DNA from: Thermoproteota archaeon
GTDB taxonomy: Archaea > Thermoproteota > Thermoprotei > Gearchaeales > Gearchaeaceae
Assembly: GCA_032249235.1 (NCBI GenBank)
Contig: JAVVGF010000004.1
Span: 43,525 to 107,524, forward strand
Length of the DNA stretch: 64,000 nt
Reading direction: 5' to 3'
The notes below the pieces were generated by a model. That model was not told where the DNA came from, did no database searches, and saw only the letters and a program-made list of their open reading frames with translations. This document shows, one piece after another, positions 40,322-44,288 of this stretch (the first letter of the stretch is position 1; every line of letters begins with the position of its first letter). The translations under genes were made by a program, and so were the position numbers.

Positions 40322-40670
40322 AAGAGGAATAAATAGAGAGACTTTGCGAATGCTGCAAAGAATGGGTGTTAGCTTTGAAAATTTAGAAGGCATAGAAGAA
40401 GTTGTTTTAAAATTTAAAGACAAAATAATCATATTGAAAAATCCTGAAGTTATGGTCACTAAAATAAGCGGACAGAAGCTATATCAAATAGCTGCATCAG
40501 AAGAAATAGAAGAAAAGAAAGAAGTATCTGAATACATTCCTAATGAAGAAGATATTCAACTTGTAATGCAACAAGCTAATGCATCAAGAGAAGAAGCAAT
40601 AAGTGCTCTCAAAGAAACTGAAGGAGATATTGCATCGGCAATAATTTTGATAAAAGCTAGGAAACAGTGA
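40314..40670 (+). CDS. nac: Nascent polypeptide-associated complex protein
   Basis: MLQRMGV; UBA-like EEDIQLVMQQA..GDIASAI. Confidence 0.93.
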   Translation: MFRRGINRETLRMLQRMGVSFENLEGIEEVVLKFKDKIIILKNPEVMVTKISGQKLYQIAASEEIEEKKEVSEYIPNEEDIQLVMQQANASREEAISALKETEGDIASAIILIKARKQ

Positions 40671-41197
40671 AAACCTTTTATTTTGAAGATTTCAATATTT
40701 GGGCTTGCTATGCTTCTTTTAAATTGAAAAATAGAAATCTTAATGAAATTTTCGAATATATTTCTAGAATTAAGTCAAAAGTTGATATTTTGCAATTGGT
40801 AGATGCTGACAAGATTTGTGGTGAGCTACACTTACTCAGCGGTATATATAGAACCTATAGAGCTAAAAAAGAATCAAAAAATATAGCTAAGGAGAATTCT
40901 GTTGAATTGTTGCTCCGTCTTAGCGGTAAAAGACAAATAAATGAAGCAATAAGCATATTAGGATTAAATGAAAAGACAAGGAATGTATTGGTTTGTTGTT
41001 GTGATCAAGATTTGGATAAAGCAAAATTAGTTACTGAAGAATTAGTTAGTCATCTTTCAGAATTTGAGAACGATGATTTCATAAACGTATATGATAAAGT
41101 GAAGGAAGAAGAAATTAAGAAAACATTCAATATAAGGACGAACAATATAGAGAAAGAAGTTTTAATGAAAATTTCTTACATTGAACTATTATCATAA
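40667..41197 (+). CDS. cgi121: KEOPS complex subunit Cgi121
   Basis: QLVDA, ELLLRLSGKRQINEAI. Confidence 0.9.
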   Translation: MKTFYFEDFNIWACYASFKLKNRNLNEIFEYISRIKSKVDILQLVDADKICGELHLLSGIYRTYRAKKESKNIAKENSVELLLRLSGKRQINEAISILGLNEKTRNVLVCCCDQDLDKAKLVTEELVSHLSEFENDDFINVYDKVKEEEIKKTFNIRTNNIEKEVLMKISYIELLS

Positions 41198-41736
41198 TCA
41201 CCTAGCAATTCTTCTATTGCTTTCTTTTTCATTTTATTAAGCACAAATATTTGATCTCTTTTAAGTACAGAAATTCCTGCAATATCCCTAATTATTTCTA
41301 TCAAGATCACGTAATCGTAATTAACTAAATCTACTTTTCTTTTAACTTTTGGAGCTATTTGTTCAATTAAAAAGTCGCTTTTTATGTTTGATTCTCTCTT
41401 ATCAATGCTTATTCTAAAGCTTTTATTTTCTTCGATCTTATTCAACAAGAGCTCAGCCGATTTAACAATTGTTTCTTCTTTAGCTTCAGTTATGATTTCA
41501 ATGGGTATTGCTCTAAGTATGTATTTTATGCTCCATACATTTTCTTTTGAATAATTTATAATTGTTTCAACAGCTTTGATAGGATCGAAATTAACTTTCA
41601 ATAATATCAAACCAGGCATTTTAACATCTAAAGGTTCAAAATCTTTAAATCCAAATTTCGATAGCAAAAGCCATGCTTCATGAACACAGTCATCTTCCCT
41701 AAATCTGTAAGTAGTTAATATTATTCCTTTATTCAT
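41176..41736 (-). CDS. THUMP-domain RNA-binding protein
   Basis: ILRAIPIE, SFRISIDKR, KVDLVNYDYVILIEI. Confidence 0.85.
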   Translation of the reverse strand: MNKGIILTTYRFREDDCVHEAWLLLSKFGFKDFEPLDVKMPGLILLKVNFDPIKAVETIINYSKENVWSIKYILRAIPIEIITEAKEETIVKSAELLLNKIEENKSFRISIDKRESNIKSDFLIEQIAPKVKRKVDLVNYDYVILIEIIRDIAGISVLKRDQIFVLNKMKKKAIEELLGDYDNSSM

Positions 41737-42061
41737 GATATAAGAAGAGGATTGTGTGCGTATCCTTAAATCTTTTTATTAAATTCTCCTTTTTCTTCAT
41801 TCTTAATTTGGTATAAACAAGTCCTCCTTTAACTCTTTTAGATATGAGTTTTATAACCAAATTATCCTTAAGCTTCTTATTTTTATGAATTTTCTTGAAA
41901 TTTCTTTCTTCTCCATCCTTTTCCTTAGTCTTGAATAAATAAAATTCTTTTTCATGCTCTAATACAAAAATTAATTCATCCCATCTTCTTATTAGCGAAA
42001 AGAATTCATCCAAAGATTTTTCATCTATCTCATTTAGCCAAATTATTATCATTGCTTGCAC
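41729..42061 (-). CDS. Hypothetical protein
   Basis: 110-aa ORF filling the gap; overlaps the THUMP gene start. Confidence 0.6.
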   Translation of the reverse strand: MQAMIIIWLNEIDEKSLDEFFSLIRRWDELIFVLEHEKEFYLFKTKEKDGEERNFKKIHKNKKLKDNLVIKLISKRVKGGLVYTKLRMKKKENLIKRFKDTHTILFLYHE

Positions 42062-42088
42062 CTTTCATGGGCTATAAAACAGCTATCT

Positions 42089-42097
42089 TTTTAAATA
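42089..42097 (+). promoter_or_regulatory. TATA box upstream of the acidic micropeptide ORF
   Basis: TTTTAAATA ending about 20 nt before ATG 42118, the spacing expected for a leaderless transcript. Confidence 0.55.
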
Positions 42098-42117
42098 AGT
42101 AAGTAGTTATCTCATTC

Positions 42118-42195
42118 ATGGCTGAGGAAGAAGAACTTGAGGAATTTGAGGAGTTCGAAGAATTTGAAGAATTAGAAGAATTTGAGGAATTTTAA
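42118..42195 (+). CDS. 25-aa acidic repeat micropeptide MAEEEELEEFEEFEEFEELEEFEEF
   Basis: Own TATA box and T-run terminator; 9-nt repeats vary at synonymous positions or by F/L exchange. Confidence 0.7.
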   Translation: MAEEEELEEFEEFEEFEELEEFEEF

Positions 42196-42240
42196 TTTTT
42201 TCGTTGAATTTTTAAGTAAGTTCCTATATTAAATCTTTAC

Positions 42241-42495
42241 ATGCAATTTTGCCCTAAATGCAATAATTTGATGGTTCCAAAGAGAGTGAAGAATGGATTT
42301 AAACTTGTATGTACTAACTGTGGTTACTCAAAAAGAGTTAAAAAAATTGATATCAAGCTCGTTTCAAAGTCAGCTGATAAAAAGAGTAAAGAAATAGCTC
42401 TAACTACTCCTGATGAAGTAAAGGCTAGAGAAGAAGAAAAAATGTTGCTTGAAGAATTGTATAAAGATTCGTTAGAATACTTTGAAACTGATTAG
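42241..42495 (+). CDS. TFS/RpoM-like protein with only the N-terminal Zn ribbon
   Basis: MQFCPKCNNLM..CTNCGY; no C-terminal ribbon or ADE motif. Confidence 0.8.
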   Translation: MQFCPKCNNLMVPKRVKNGFKLVCTNCGYSKRVKKIDIKLVSKSADKKSKEIALTTPDEVKAREEEKMLLEELYKDSLEYFETD

Positions 42496-44288
42496 TGACA
42501 GTAAGAATAGCAATAGTAAATCGCGACTATTGCAAATCTGACAAGTGTAATTTCGAGTGCAATAGATTTTGTCCTATAGTAAGAGCTGGAAATGAAATAG
42601 TTTGGCTTGATGAATCAGGTAAAGCTGTAATAGATGAAGAAGGATGTATAGGTTGTGGTATTTGTGTAGAAAAATGTCCATTTCATGCAATAGAAATCGT
42701 TAATCTTGCAAGTGAGCCAAAAGTTCCTTGTATTCATCAATATGGAGTAAATAGTTTCAGACTTTATGGCTTACCTTTCATCAGATATGGAAAAGCTTCA
42801 GGCGTTATAGGCATGAATGGTGCGGGCAAATCTACAGCTATAAACATACTTGCAGGTAAATTATATCCAAATTTAGGAAATTTTGATAAAAAGCCTGAAC
42901 CAGAGGATATAATAAGCAATTTCAGAGGTAGCGAATTGCAACGTTACTTGAAAGACCTTTATGATAAGAAAATAAGGGTTGCAATTAAGCCACAAGATAT
43001 ACATGAAATACCTCTGGTGCTTAAAGGAAGCGTTAGAGATGTATTGAAATTCATTGAAAATAAAGATATATTTGAGCATGTAAGCGAGGTTTTTAAATTG
43101 AACGAATTTGTCGATAAGAAAATTTCTAATCTAAGTGGGGGAGAACTTCAAAGATTCGCTATTACACTAGCTATTTCGAGAGATGCTGACGTTTATTTCT
43201 TGGACGAGCCTTGCAGCTATTTAGATGTACAGCAAAGACTCAGACTAGCTCGCATATTGGATTTCTTGTTAGAAAGAAACAAAACTTTGCTTATTGTGGA
43301 GCATGATCTATCCCTAATTGATTATTTATGCGATACAATAACCATAATCTACGGTAAACCTAAGGTATATGGTATAGCTTCTTTGCCTTATTCTACAAAT
43401 GCAGGAATAAATGCTTATTTTGAAGGATTTTTACCTCATGAAAATGTTAGAATAAGGAAAAATCCCATCAAGTTTTATCTAAAAAGTTTAGAAAGGGTTG
43501 AATTTTCTCCTTATAAATTCTTGTTCTGGACTAATTTGAAAGTAAATTTATATGATTTTTATCTCGAAGTAGAAGAAGGCTTTGCAAATAAAGGAGAAGT
43601 TTTAGGAATTGTTGGACCTAACGGTATTGGTAAAACTACCTTCGTTAAGACAATTGTGGGAGAGATAAAGGAATATGAAGGAAGTGTTTATTCTATAGAA
43701 GAAAATCCTAAAATGAGCTATAAGCCCCAAGTTTTCAAGTTCGAAAACGAAGATCTTTTGGTTAAGGATTATTTGTATGATATAAACAAGGAATTCTATA
43801 AGAATGAATGGATAACCGATGAAATAATTCAACCTTTAAGGATCGATCAAATTTTAGAAAGGAAGATTTCTGAACTTAGCGGAGGTGAGAGACAAGCTTT
43901 AATGATAGCGGCAACACTTTTGAGAGATGCAGATATATACGTTTTTGATGAACCTAGCGCATTTTTAGATGTTGAACAAAGATTATCTTTAGCTAAACTT
44001 TTGAAAAAATATGCTCAAACATTTAAAAAACTCGTGATCGTCGTAGAGCATGATTTATTAATTCATGATTTCACAGCAGATTCATTAATAATCTTTAAAG
44101 GTGAACCTGCGAAGAAAGGTTATGCACTTAAGCCTATGTCTTTAAAAGAAGGTTTCAATAACTTTTTGAAAGATTTAGGAATTACCTTTAGAAGAGATAA
44201 AAGGACTAATAGACCTAGGATAAATAAGCCTGGCTCTAGTTTAGATAGATATCAAAAAGAAATTGGTGAATATTACTATTTAGAATAA
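42495..44288 (+). CDS. ABCE1/Rli1 ribosome recycling ATPase
   Basis: FeS domain CIGCGICVEKCP; two ABC cassettes (LSGGELQR, LSGGERQ). Confidence 0.97.
   Translation: MTVRIAIVNRDYCKSDKCNFECNRFCPIVRAGNEIVWLDESGKAVIDEEGCIGCGICVEKCPFHAIEIVNLASEPKVPCIHQYGVNSFRLYGLPFIRYGKASGVIGMNGAGKSTAINILAGKLYPNLGNFDKKPEPEDIISNFRGSELQRYLKDLYDKKIRVAIKPQDIHEIPLVLKGSVRDVLKFIENKDIFEHVSEVFKLNEFVDKKISNLSGGELQRFAITLAISRDADVYFLDEPCSYLDVQQRLRLARILDFLLERNKTLLIVEHDLSLIDYLCDTITIIYGKPKVYGIASLPYSTNAGINAYFEGFLPHENVRIRKNPIKFYLKSLERVEFSPYKFLFWTNLKVNLYDFYLEVEEGFANKGEVLGIVGPNGIGKTTFVKTIVGEIKEYEGSVYSIEENPKMSYKPQVFKFENEDLLVKDYLYDINKEFYKNEWITDEIIQPLRIDQILERKISELSGGERQALMIAATLLRDADIYVFDEPSAFLDVEQRLSLAKLLKKYAQTFKKLVIVVEHDLLIHDFTADSLIIFKGEPAKKGYALKPMSLKEGFNNFLKDLGITFRRDKRTNRPRINKPGSSLDRYQKEIGEYYYLE

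Follow-up and report, generated by a model that had tools for sequence, protein, structure and literature searches.

A family of polyacidic-aromatic micro-ORFs adjoins the ribosome-recycling factor ABCE1 in archaea and may encode an overlooked microprotein

Within the 64,000-nt stretch of Thermoproteota DNA analyzed here (the window), a micro-ORF precedes the genes for a TFS paralogue and for ABCE1 (Table 1). It opens with an ATG at 42118-42120 and closes with a TAA at 42193-42195; its 25-aa product contains 16 glutamates, and Tandem Repeats Finder resolves positions 42130-42192 into 7.0 copies of a 9-nt unit, with 81% matches and no indels. Every element read here by the initial annotation, from the TATA box, start, stop and T6 run to the second TATA box and the 16 Glu among 25 residues, is indeed in place. 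The first TATA-like box, of which TTTTTAAA[T/G]AAG is kept in 3/3 aligned same-genus genomes, is a putative promoter, and given its distance of ~20 nt from the ATG the micro-ORF transcript would have no leader or almost none. The second box, TTTTTAAGTAAG, is kept in 3/3 aligned same-genus genomes as well. The T6 run is a possible weak archaeal oligo-T terminator, and T-rich tracts also follow the stop codon of the micro-ORFs in relatives; termination at this run, if any, would be leaky, since one RNA-library contig crosses it. Scans for sigma-70-type promoters and hairpin terminators, whose models do not apply to archaea, returned nothing at the micro-ORF. A six-frame search of the 1.43-Mb genome for 15-aa windows holding 9 or more D/E and 3 or more F/W/Y/L singled out two stop-to-stop segments and no others: the micro-ORF and one 868-aa ORF.

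Table 1. Features at the micro-ORF locus, in window coordinates
Feature	Coordinates	Strand	Description
110-aa ORF	41729..42061	-	family not assigned; divergent from the micro-ORF; context only
TATA-like box TTTTTAAATAAG	42088..42099	+	~20 nt 5' of the micro-ORF ATG
Micro-ORF	42118..42195	+	25 codons plus TAA; encodes MAEEEELEEFEEFEEFEELEEFEEF
T6 run	42196..42201	+	immediately 3' of the micro-ORF stop codon
Second TATA-like box TTTTTAAGTAAG	42209..42220	+	~21 nt 5' of the TFS2 ATG
TFS2, 84 aa	42241..42495	+	TFS paralogue: N-terminal Zn ribbon only, Lys-rich linker, Glu-rich C-terminal helix
ABCE1 (RLI)	42495..44288	+	ribosome-recycling twin ATPase with Fe-S domain; Pfam Fer4_RLI, Fer4, two ABC_tran

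The product of the first downstream gene matches Pfam Zn_ribbon_RPB9 (PF02150) over residues 1-30 (E = 9.3e-10), contains just two CxxC pairs, and aligns with the archaeal TFS model TIGR01384 (TFS_arch) over profile positions 1-56 of 101 only. Its AF2 model (mean pLDDT 71) places strands at residues 10-32 and a helix at residues 57-83, and the protein is bipolar, with a basic N-terminal half and an acidic helix. It thus resembles TFS2 (sso0605) in joining an N-terminal Zn ribbon to a Glu-rich helical C terminus without the catalytic C-terminal ribbon. The description of TFS2 used for this identification comes from the available part of PMC5715097, which mentions neither an upstream micro-ORF nor a pairing of TFS2 with ABCE1 and gives no function for TFS2. 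The ABCE1 gene starts with GTG and overlaps the TFS2 stop codon by 1 nt. On the other side of the micro-ORF, the divergent 110-aa ORF has no Pfam or NCBIfam match, and the neighborhood also includes Cgi121/KEOPS, THUMP and Sua5 genes.

Compared with its counterpart in the same-genus genome G001, the micro-ORF carries 13 nucleotide differences that alter 12 codons and no amino acid, and among orthologues E exchanges with D and F, W and L with one another. That 12/12 changed codons are synonymous shows selection acting on the predicted protein, which supports the unrecognized acidic-aromatic microprotein gene, with its own promoter-like box and selected at the protein level, that the initial annotation had proposed. 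A Shine-Dalgarno-like motif lies at -20 to -4 of 107/159 starts, compared with 237/3180 random positions (7.5%) in the same loci, a ninefold enrichment, and the start codon is ATG in 116/159. We also looked among relatives for loci that keep the repeat and lose the frame, the ATG or the stop, and found the opposite: loci of different classes retain the frame, the start and the stop. Among same-order genomes in which the region is assembled, the micro-ORF occupies the same intergenic position in 9/10, and in the remaining one (G007) it is intact 4.4 kb away; all ten preserve its ATG, frame and stop. We consider it very likely that this is a real protein-coding gene under protein-level selection.

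Regarding transcription, a 432-nt contig from a hot-spring metatranscriptome matches positions 42132-42541 with 1 mismatch and so spans the micro-ORF, TFS2 and the start of ABCE1. This single contig is strandless and DNA carry-over is possible, so it weakly suggests that the micro-ORF region is expressed; the one run concerned matched only part (share 0.10) of a 3.3-kb stretch, the uncovered parts of which are not evidence of silence.

Orthologous micro-ORFs occur in more than 140 distinct versions, of ~20-45 aa, in Thermoprotei (including Sulfolobales and Desulfurococcales), Methanomethylicia and Bathyarchaeia; cultured carriers include Metallosphaera (M. yellowstonensis, M. javensis), of the Sulfolobales, and Thermogladius. 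A pattern scan of the class found matches in 20/120 genomes, 17 of these 20 having stand-alone micro-ORFs, and its reversed control gave 6 single matches. An HMM search of the 120 class genomes with peptide alignment A2 had no match, even in the window's own genome, a null result that is uninformative because the profile method fails on such a low-complexity family. The exact sequences of 18/20 peptides are absent from a collection of 15 billion proteins, the sole name attached to exact peptide sequences by any source is "hypothetical protein," and a homology search with a 45-aa peptide recovered 1 protein, a 78-aa "hypothetical protein." Pfam and NCBIfam assign the peptides to no family, and the best ESM Atlas feature score for the peptide, 0.81, is under the level counted as a lead. 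Literature searches by peptide motif strings gave only unrelated word matches, and those for small acidic Sulfolobus proteins and ribosome profiling had nothing on the family among the papers listed; we do not claim its absence from print. Stand-alone polyacidic-aromatic peptides of this kind appear to make up a large family that annotation has all but missed.

The composition of 144 peptides is 69% E, 7% D, 16% W and 2% F, and basic residues number 7 in 3562 core positions. The N-terminal stub is short and hydrophobic and leads into a core of ~12-60 residues that is ~77% Glu+Asp, and in 133/159 cases the acidic run begins 1-4 residues past the initiator Met. Trp or Phe recurs every 3-8 residues, most often every 5, and since this spacing is irregular an amphipathic helix is not obvious. 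The C terminus is usually EE[W/F]-COOH: W, F or Y comes last in 43/51 peptides collected regardless of C terminus, and [DE][DE][WFY] ends 133/144 peptides of a set biased by the scan word described below. The Methanomethylicia forms repeat acidic E-[ED]-W-P motifs, and the (EE[F/L])7 arrangement seen in the window is only an AT-rich local form. As most relatives use Trp with irregular spacing, the Glu/Phe-sensing leader peptide that the initial annotation had offered as one possibility is unlikely.

We analyzed the genomic surroundings of the family in several ways. The order is peptide, TFS2, ABCE1 for 28/51 distinct peptides and peptide directly before ABCE1 for 12/51, and the micro-ORF is present in 20/57 TFS2-anchored named loci with a TFS2-like match, in 14/80 ABCE1-anchored loci (11 of the 14 labelled Bathyarchaeia and without TFS2) and in 24/80 such loci with a Sulfolobales query, including cultured Metallosphaera; all of these counts are inflated, because the loci were mostly located by way of TFS2 or ABCE1 anchors. 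When 185,579 species genomes were scanned for the DNA word W-E-E-E-E-W-stop, a search blind to neighbors that selects one C-terminal word, at least 120 loci were found. Among the 120 loci listed, 109 are acidic micro-ORFs, and in 83 of these 109 the N terminus of ABCE1 begins no more than 600 nt downstream, on the same strand; 22 of the 109 have no ABCE1 inside the 300-700 nt examined. No TFS2 intervenes in Bathyarchaeia and Sulfolobales, where the micro-ORF directly precedes ABCE1, and in G049 the peptide stop is 7 nt before the ABCE1 start, TFS2 being on another contig. The neighbor common to the micro-ORF across lineages is thus ABCE1, not TFS2; the "TFS-like gene" named in the initial annotation does adjoin the micro-ORF in the window, with the identity TFS2, but is not its constant companion. 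A functional link between the micro-ORF and ABCE1 is probable in our judgment, and its specificity may be overstated given the conserved synteny of information-processing genes such as Cgi121/KEOPS, THUMP and Sua5.

Intact copies also occur elsewhere. In a location-blind sample of the class, 7/17 micro-ORFs are away from both TFS2 and ABCE1. The relocated copy of G007 is on the opposite strand and still adjoined by the homologue of the 110-aa ORF, 4.4 kb from TFS2, and at Desulfurococcaceae-type loci the micro-ORF is in divergent orientation. Such relocated or divergent copies argue for a trans-acting product, which we regard as fairly likely, and they disfavor a purely cis-acting leader peptide. 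Together with the TATA-like box of its own, they show the predicted micro-ORF gene to be autonomous.

The reading that we favor, with a confidence somewhat short of even, is that the micro-ORF is translated into a microprotein tied to ABCE1, a disordered trans-acting ligand of the ABCE1 module, whatever its exact docking site. Intrinsically disordered and working in trans, the microprotein would dock on a hydrophobic/basic site of the ABCE1 module by means of its aromatics, the free carboxylate of its C-terminal aromatic residue and its polyanionic chain, with a docking grammar akin to that of the acidic C-terminal tail of the stalk protein aP1. By competing with the stalk tail or replacing it, the peptide could tune ABCE1 recruitment or ATPase activation. 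The available part of PMC6125642 describes the aP1 C-terminal peptide as a helix whose L103, L106 and F107 sit in a cavity on the NBD1 surface of archaeal ABCE1, and reports that this binding is required for the ribosome-dependent ATPase activation of ABCE1. From the gene linkage and this aP1-ABCE1 binding, we tentatively infer that the microprotein might bind ABCE1 directly; that it would do so at the stalk-tail site is a more doubtful extension by analogy.

The aP1 tail, a documented archaeal ABCE1 ligand, and the micro-ORF peptides are alike in being acidic, disordered stretches with hydrophobic or aromatic ends. They differ in that the microprotein has a gene to itself, is much richer in acidic residues and Trp, and lacks the L-x-x-L-F motif. 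The aP1 of the window genome ends ...KKEEVSEETISAGLSALFG, that is, in SAGLSALFG, whereas the microproteins end in EE[W/F]. Membership in the ribosomal P-stalk tail family (Ribosomal_60s, PF00428) was rejected, the peptides having no Pfam match to it and no L-x-x-L-F(-G) end. In its most extended and rather speculative form, which we think improbable as a whole, the proposal would make the microprotein a hitherto unseen ABCE1 cofactor, already present in the common ancestor of Thermoprotei, Methanomethylicia and Bathyarchaeia. As a free P-stalk tail mimic, it would control whether ABCE1 is recruited or its ATPase activated, and perhaps do likewise for the translational GTPases that share the tail, with TFS2 as a second component of the module. 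If true, a transcription-factor paralogue would be tied to translation.

ABCE1 is essential and universal in archaea and eukaryotes. Since many archaea keep the gene next to ABCE1, the microprotein may be an overlooked player in translation, and a conserved gene that is invisible to annotation provides a concrete new candidate for the recruitment or regulation of ABCE1. The arrangement of micro-ORF, TFS2 and ABCE1 also gives a genomic context to TFS2, an orphan factor, and suggests that its role may lie where transcription meets translation. Beyond this case, short low-complexity genes (20-45 codons) systematically escape gene callers even though purifying selection on them is strong. These hypotheses are directly testable, as the peptide is easily synthesized and has intrinsic Trp fluorescence, and carriers such as Metallosphaera and Thermogladius are in culture.

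The main rival, which we hold to be unlikely, is that the micro-ORF is a cis-acting translation sensor or leader, in which translating the acidic codons matters and the product does not. Translating the micro-ORF would govern read-through or re-initiation into TFS2-ABCE1, linking the supply of ABCE1 to the stability of ribosomes or the capacity to recycle them. The position of the micro-ORF 5' of (TFS2-)ABCE1 on the same strand, in 41/51 peptides and in 84 of the 109 micro-ORFs listed from the scan, is consistent with this idea, as are the T-run after the stop, the RNA-library contig joining the micro-ORF, TFS2 and the ABCE1 start, and some gaps of 0-30 nt that leave no space for a promoter. 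A precedent comes from the available parts of PMC9718836 and PMC12673854, in which consecutive acidic residues near the N terminus destabilize translating ribosomes, and of PMC11162784, in which ribosome-bound ABC-F ATPases cope with acidic ribosome-destabilizing sequences; the destabilization is reported there for bacteria and eukaryotes, not for archaea. Leaders acting by intrinsic ribosome destabilization resemble the micro-ORF in having an acidic run just past the Met and, usually, a translation-related gene 3' of the ORF; the micro-ORF differs in its promoter-like box, its conserved C terminus and its relocated and divergent copies. A leader or uORF always precedes its regulated gene and shares its strand and transcript, an arrangement that holds for most loci and fails in G007, in the 7/17 class genomes with copies far from ABCE1 and TFS2, and at the divergent Desulfurococcaceae-type loci. 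As to cotranscription, the bridging contig and the short gaps have to be set against separate TATA-like boxes 5' of the downstream gene, that is, TFS2 in the window and its order and ABCE1 in Bathyarchaeia. Moreover, the strongly kept EE[W/F] end and the hydrophobic N-terminal stub would be superfluous for a simple acidic-run sensor.

Less probable still, and quite unlikely in our estimate, is that the microprotein is a partner of TFS2 on RNA polymerase, its polyanionic chain binding the Lys/Arg-rich half of TFS2, made up of Zn ribbon and linker, or mimicking nucleic acid in the polymerase, with ABCE1 as a bystander. The micro-ORF is immediately 5' of TFS2 in the window and for 29/51 distinct peptides, and in G040, G041 and G050 the stop and start codons abut or are 3 nt apart, suggesting coupled translation. 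The bipolar charge of TFS2 would suit such a partner, and N-terminal ribbons of the TFS type are part of RNA polymerase-binding factors according to the available text of PMC5715097. Against this partnership stand the Bathyarchaeia and Sulfolobales micro-ORFs placed directly at ABCE1 and the G049 locus, where the peptide stayed by ABCE1 and TFS2 moved. An acidic N-terminal extension, as a fusion with the peptide would give, was also sought in TFS2 itself, and none was found in the 6 representatives, among the best 150, whose match starts at least 20 residues in. Cofolding of TFS2 with the peptide of a Methanomethylicia-type locus (L097; alignments A5 and A4), run without controls, scored 0.00 in both runs and gave low confidence to the fold of the peptide itself (pLDDT under 50), a result that speaks neither for nor against binding.

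Small acidic disordered proteins of the DSS1/Sem1 or prothymosin kind prompt another reading, to which we give little credence: a general polyanionic "glue," chaperone or nucleic-acid mimic with several basic targets (ribosomal, chromatin or OB-fold proteins) and no specific tie to ABCE1. DSS1/SEM1 is a subunit of PCI-domain complexes or of BRCA2, and its motifs presumably resemble the repeated E-[ED]-W-P of the Methanomethylicia micro-ORF forms. The amino acid composition given above agrees with this reading, and the relocated copies show the gene functioning at a distance from ABCE1. The available part of PMC8442969 presents DSS1 and CSNAP as disordered subunits of small size and high acidity within larger complexes. 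The micro-ORF peptides share with them the very small size, high acidity, disorder and aromatics embedded in acidic runs, but are shorter and have ABCE1/TFS2 rather than PCI proteins as genomic partners. None of 8 peptides (25-83 aa, several lineages) matches DSS1/SEM1 (PF05160) at E up to 10, the Pfam results for this set being two unrelated families with E of 2.3 and 7.1, both for one 83-aa form. Such a glue would also leave the strong neighbor-blind enrichment beside ABCE1 unexplained.

By analogy with eukaryotes, the peptide might instead be an Fe-S maturation adaptor for ABCE1, its acidic-Trp C terminus being seen by an Fe-S delivery factor in the manner of Lto1, a proposal that we find very unlikely. 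In eukaryotes, the C-terminal tryptophan of Lto1 brings the CIA targeting complex to Rli1/ABCE1. As far as the available texts go, the adaptors Yae1-Lto1 are specific to ABCE1 (PMC4523923), and recognition of CIA clients relies on a C-terminal [LIM]-[DES]-[WF]-COO- tripeptide (PMC10245660). The parallel lies in an acidic residue followed by a C-terminal Trp/Phe carboxylate, found in most of the peptides of the scan-biased set, and in a connection to ABCE1, which the micro-ORF adjoins; that system is eukaryotic, however, and the full tripeptide occurs in 0/144 peptides, because position -3 is never Leu, Ile or Met. The peptides also have no deca-GX3 or other domain able to hold ABCE1. Among other candidates, a RiPP or cofactor precursor peptide and a LysW-like amino-group carrier were dropped, as no biosynthetic genes are nearby in any lineage examined, and so was a proteasome HbYX-type tail, the aromatic residue being last rather than penultimate.

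Finally, a non-coding purine-rich tandem repeat that is open by chance, whether it arose by slippage or serves as an element in DNA or RNA, is scarcely credible: the seven-copy 9-nt repeat and the G001 differences, mostly GAA/GAG and TTT/TTC transitions that also keep the purine/pyrimidine pattern, would allow it, but no Rfam family is over threshold (the sole match, with E = 0.83, is elsewhere), Shine-Dalgarno-like motifs are enriched before the starts, and three classes retain the ATG, the frame and the stop as the DNA shifts from (GAR GAR TTY)n to irregular GAR/GAY/TGG strings. The kept frame, ATG and stop and the synonymous codon changes likewise differ from a microsatellite, whose copy number and frame would drift freely, and the E to D exchanges (GAR to GAY) interrupt the purine run and keep the charge.

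The 25-codon ORF proposed in the initial annotation is present in the window, where its peptide contains 16 Glu, and the two TATA-like boxes and the T6 run described with it were all found. Tandem Repeats Finder reports 7.0 copies of a 9-nt unit, free of indels, at 42130-42192. The two boxes have almost the same sequence and both are kept in three aligned genomes of the genus; with a TATA-like box about 20-25 nt 5′ of the ATG, the micro-ORF transcript looks leaderless in the window's order. Genome-wide (1.43 Mb), only two stop-to-stop segments, the micro-ORF and an 868-aa ORF, pass an acidic-aromatic filter (D/E ≥ 9 and F/W/Y/L ≥ 3 within 15 residues).

Features at the micro-ORF locus, in window coordinates
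Feature	Position	Strand	Description
Cgi121 gene	40667-41197		
110-aa ORF	41729-42061	-	Divergent from the micro-ORF; no Pfam or NCBIfam match
TATA-like box TTTTTAAATAAG	42088-42099	+	About 20 nt 5′ of the micro-ORF
Micro-ORF	42118-42195	+	25 codons, encodes MAEEEELEEFEEFEEFEELEEFEEF; TAA stop
T6 run	42196-42201	+	Directly 3′ of the micro-ORF TAA
TATA-like box TTTTTAAGTAAG	42209-42220	+	About 21 nt 5′ of the next gene (TFS2)
TFS2	42241-42495	+	Of TFS/RPB9, retains just the N-terminal Zn ribbon (PF02150 in Pfam, E = 9.3e-10)
ABCE1	42495-44288	+	GTG start; 1-nt overlap with the TFS2 stop

That selection acts on the protein, as had been proposed, is borne out by comparison with the micro-ORF of G001, a genome of the same genus: 12 codons and no amino acids are changed, through 13 differences in 78 nt, and the adjoining TFS2 is 81% identical. 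Further close pairs gave synonymous/non-synonymous codon counts of 7/2, 3/1, 5/0 and 11/5. From lineage to lineage, the (GAR GAR TTY)n repeat gives way to irregular strings of GAR/GAY/TGG that retain charge and aromaticity: E and D replace each other, and F alternates with W and L; Phe is the aromatic of the window's AT-rich order (~30% G+C) and Trp that found elsewhere. The acidic core of 144 distinct peptides, a set in which one C-terminal word is over-represented, has a median length of 22 residues; Glu makes up 69% of it, Trp 16% and Asp 7%, and 7 of 3562 residues are basic. Of 51 peptides found irrespective of their C-terminus, 43 end in W, F or Y. Of 159 cases, 133 have 1-4 mostly hydrophobic residues (MVF, MIF, MLF and similar) between start and core, and in 116 the start closest to the core is an ATG. 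A Shine-Dalgarno-like motif at −20 to −4 precedes 107 of the 159 starts; of 3180 positions drawn at random from these loci, 237 have one.

We looked at the same intergenic position in relatives, as had been suggested, and found an acidic micro-ORF in 9 of 10 same-order TFS2 loci. In the tenth genome, G007, it lies 4.4 kb away on the opposite strand, beside a homologue of the window's 110-aa ORF, and encodes a peptide identical to that of its sister genome. Among 80 named TFS2-anchored loci there are 57 TFS2-like matches, 20 of them with a micro-ORF (18 upstream on the same strand, 2 divergent), and the carriers include Desulfurococcales and Thermoproteales MAGs, Thermocladium and Methanomethylicus; divergent micro-ORFs occur at Desulfurococcaceae-type loci. 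ABCE1-anchored loci across Archaea have the micro-ORF in 14 of 80 cases, 11 of which bear a Bathyarchaeia label and lack an intervening TFS2 between micro-ORF and ABCE1 (L155, among these 11, is a doubtful case); it was found in 0 of 60 ABCE1 loci from Asgard (10), Nitrososphaerales/Thaumarchaeota (5), Calditenuaceae (1) and Euryarchaeota-type and unlabelled sources (44). When a Sulfolobales ABCE1 fragment was the query, 24 of 80 loci carried a micro-ORF, mostly 40-60 nt before ABCE1, including those of the cultured Metallosphaera yellowstonensis and M. javensis and of the complete genome of Sulfolobales archaeon HS-7, and 0 of 23 loci labelled Nitrososphaer* did so.

A Trp-type DNA pattern matches 20 of 120 genomes of the window's class, against 6 single matches for the reversed control. 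The matches comprise 17 stand-alone micro-ORFs, of which 9 precede TFS2, 1 immediately precedes ABCE1 and 7 lie elsewhere, together with 2 acidic-Trp tails of larger ORFs and 1 match at a contig end. Independently of neighbours, scanning 185,579 species genomes for a 21-nt word encoding W-E-E-E-E-W-stop gave at least 120 loci, 109 of them acidic micro-ORFs. For 83 of these micro-ORFs ABCE1 follows on the same strand, its N-terminus beginning at most 600 nt downstream; the others are 1 followed by TFS2 and then ABCE1, 3 divergent from TFS2/ABCE1, and 22 with neither inside the 300-700 nt examined. Among the matches listed, the 80 loci with titles include 55 Bathyarchae*, 15 Thermoprotei-type (among them the complete chromosome of Thermogladius sp. 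4427co) and 5 bacterial, four of these last not being micro-ORFs. Family-typical micro-ORFs occur on contigs labelled Krumholzibacteriaceae bacterium (L252), Nanoarchaeia (L280, before ABCE1) and Methanobacteriota (L360, where ABCE1 shares 69% identity with one from Sulfolobales); such cases suggest mis-binning or mislabelling more than a broader distribution.

These results show that the micro-ORF is conserved and autonomous as a gene, that it specifies a polyacidic-aromatic peptide, and that, over three classes, no neighbour is as common as ABCE1. The claim of a stand-alone gene agrees with the intact copies away from ABCE1/TFS2 in G007 and 7 genomes of the class. Its placement upstream of a TFS-like gene and ABCE1 holds for ABCE1 in most copies, and for TFS2 only in some lineages: TFS2 sits between the two in Thermoprotei-type and Methanomethylicia lineages, whereas in G049, Bathyarchaeia and Sulfolobales the micro-ORF remains with ABCE1 and TFS2 is elsewhere. 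Judged from gene order, the persistence of the micro-ORF without TFS2, alone or in divergent orientation argues for a product acting in trans.

One hot-spring metatranscriptome run covers part of the stretch with a 432-nt contig (1 mismatch), which begins at 42132 directly after adapter, continues through the remainder of the micro-ORF and TFS2, and reaches 47 nt into ABCE1. The contig would fit transcription, and reading through of the T6 run; it does not prove a single transcript, and DNA carry-over is possible. When 20 exact peptide sequences were compared with ~15 billion predicted proteins, 18 were absent, 1 was unnamed and 1 was a “hypothetical protein [Acidianus].” Homology search returned one match, a 78-aa “hypothetical protein,” no Pfam or NCBIfam family matches the peptides, and the peptide motif strings, used as literature queries, retrieved nothing relevant.

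The gene following the micro-ORF in the window encodes the paralogue called TFS2 (sso0605). Its match to TIGR01384 spans profile positions 1-56 of 101, its linker is rich in Lys, and an AF2 model (mean pLDDT 71) places a Glu-rich helix at residues 57-83. Excerpts of a published study place TFS2 in all Crenarchaeota, with a Glu-rich helical region replacing the C-terminal ribbon (PMC5715097). Where relatives of the locus are named, their labels are those of Crenarchaeota and Geoarchaeota MAGs. TFS2-ABCE1 is a conserved gene pair, with ABCE1 directly after TFS2 in 11 of 14 Pfam-annotated loci; it is seen in the window (42241-44288) and in L036, L038, L040, L041, L047, L055, L063, L097, L104, L070 and L080, and the three loci without this adjacency (L046, L078, L086) all lack the micro-ORF too. 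This conserved pairing hints at a possible role alongside the translation-recycling machinery for TFS2, a TFS paralogue still uncharacterised.

On the 5′ side of the micro-ORF lie the family-less 110-aa ORF and genes for a THUMP protein, Cgi121, NAC, a PUA protein, MBF1 and TFE-alpha. The homologue of the 110-aa ORF in G007 (L113, 1827-2153, + strand) still adjoins the micro-ORF, both being 4.4 kb from TFS2. Immediately 5′ of the micro-ORF, t6A tRNA-modification genes (KEOPS subunits, Sua5) are found repeatedly, with Cgi121 in the window and in L038, L040, L041, L055, L063, L097, L104 and L130, Sua5 in L046, L055 and L097, and Kae1 with a Bud32-like kinase in L124; they are also present in two loci whose micro-ORF does not adjoin TFS2-ABCE1. 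Either the neighbourhood is a conserved one of information-processing genes, or the micro-ORF has a second link in function.

By analogy, we favour a role at the ABCE1 module, for which the peptide would be a ligand or competitor resembling the stalk tail. The peptide would be disordered, and aromatic “stickers” together with a free C-terminal aromatic carboxylate, set in a polyanion, would dock on a hydrophobic and basic site, of which the NBD1 cavity of ABCE1 is the best documented in this context, hence our preference. According to excerpts of PMC6125642, residues L103, L106 and F107 of the acidic-hydrophobic C-terminal tail of the stalk protein aP1 bind the NBD1 cavity of archaeal ABCE1, and this binding is required for ATPase activation on the ribosome. 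The window genome's own aP1 ends in ...KKEEVSEETISAGLSALFG; the peptide and the aP1 tail are unlike in sequence.

Alternatively, an extremely acidic ORF before a ribosome-splitting ABC ATPase could be a cis-acting sensor in a feedback device. Excerpted literature describes acidic runs just past the start as destabilising translating ribosomes in bacteria and eukaryotes, an effect counteracted by ABC-F ATPases, and tight gene spacing in some lineages and the RNA contig bridging micro-ORF, TFS2 and ABCE1 start would suit such a device; relocated or divergent copies, promoter-like boxes proper to each gene and the conserved C-terminus of the peptide speak against it. A partner of TFS2 or RNA polymerase would find an obvious electrostatic match in the basic half of TFS2, but no TFS2 occurs in the micro-ORF neighbourhood in Bathyarchaeia and Sulfolobales. 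The peptide might also be a general DSS1-like polyanionic glue or mimic, or an Lto1-like Fe-S maturation tag, against which stands the full [LIM]-[DES]-[WF] motif in 0 of 144 peptides. A non-coding repeat is practically excluded.

Acidic disordered tails and microproteins docking on partners are a known kind, as in P-stalk tails and DSS1/Sem1. Within the searches made, a stand-alone Glu/Trp microprotein of 20-45 residues, conserved in Thermoprotei, Methanomethylicia and Bathyarchaeia and tied to ABCE1, appears to be new, as does the arrangement of micro-ORF, TFS2 and ABCE1. The family is real and broad, and directly testable in cultured Sulfolobales.

Two larger ORFs are, from their sequences, possible fused forms of the microprotein. 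One, in a complete genome of the class (G022; L138, 1501-1848, − strand), has 116 aa, with an N-terminal domain of ~75 aa lacking a Pfam family and an acidic-Trp C-terminal tail (...EEEWEQEDEWEEEWEEEEEW), and a second copy lies elsewhere in that chromosome, where the pattern matches two places; the other (G032; L135, 832-1566, + strand) has 245 aa with an acidic-Trp stretch. TFS2-like Zn-ribbon proteins of Hadarchaeota bear an acidic-aromatic C-terminal tail, e.g. ...EYEIEPPEYDEEMYE, with no separate micro-ORF nearby (loci so labelled: L042, L048, L052, L053, L062, L064, L069, L072, L081, L091, L103, L107), and this tail might serve as a cis-acting equivalent of the microprotein, which would act in trans. 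The relocated micro-ORF of G060 (L133, 486-626, − strand) lies beside a gene for F420-0:gamma-glutamyl ligase (805-1566, + strand), and this pairing of an enzyme that adds glutamate with a gene for a poly-Glu peptide is probably a coincidence. In G049 (L127, ~1590-1740, − strand), a sequence that is tRNA-like by eye lies directly 5′ of the micro-ORF abutting ABCE1.
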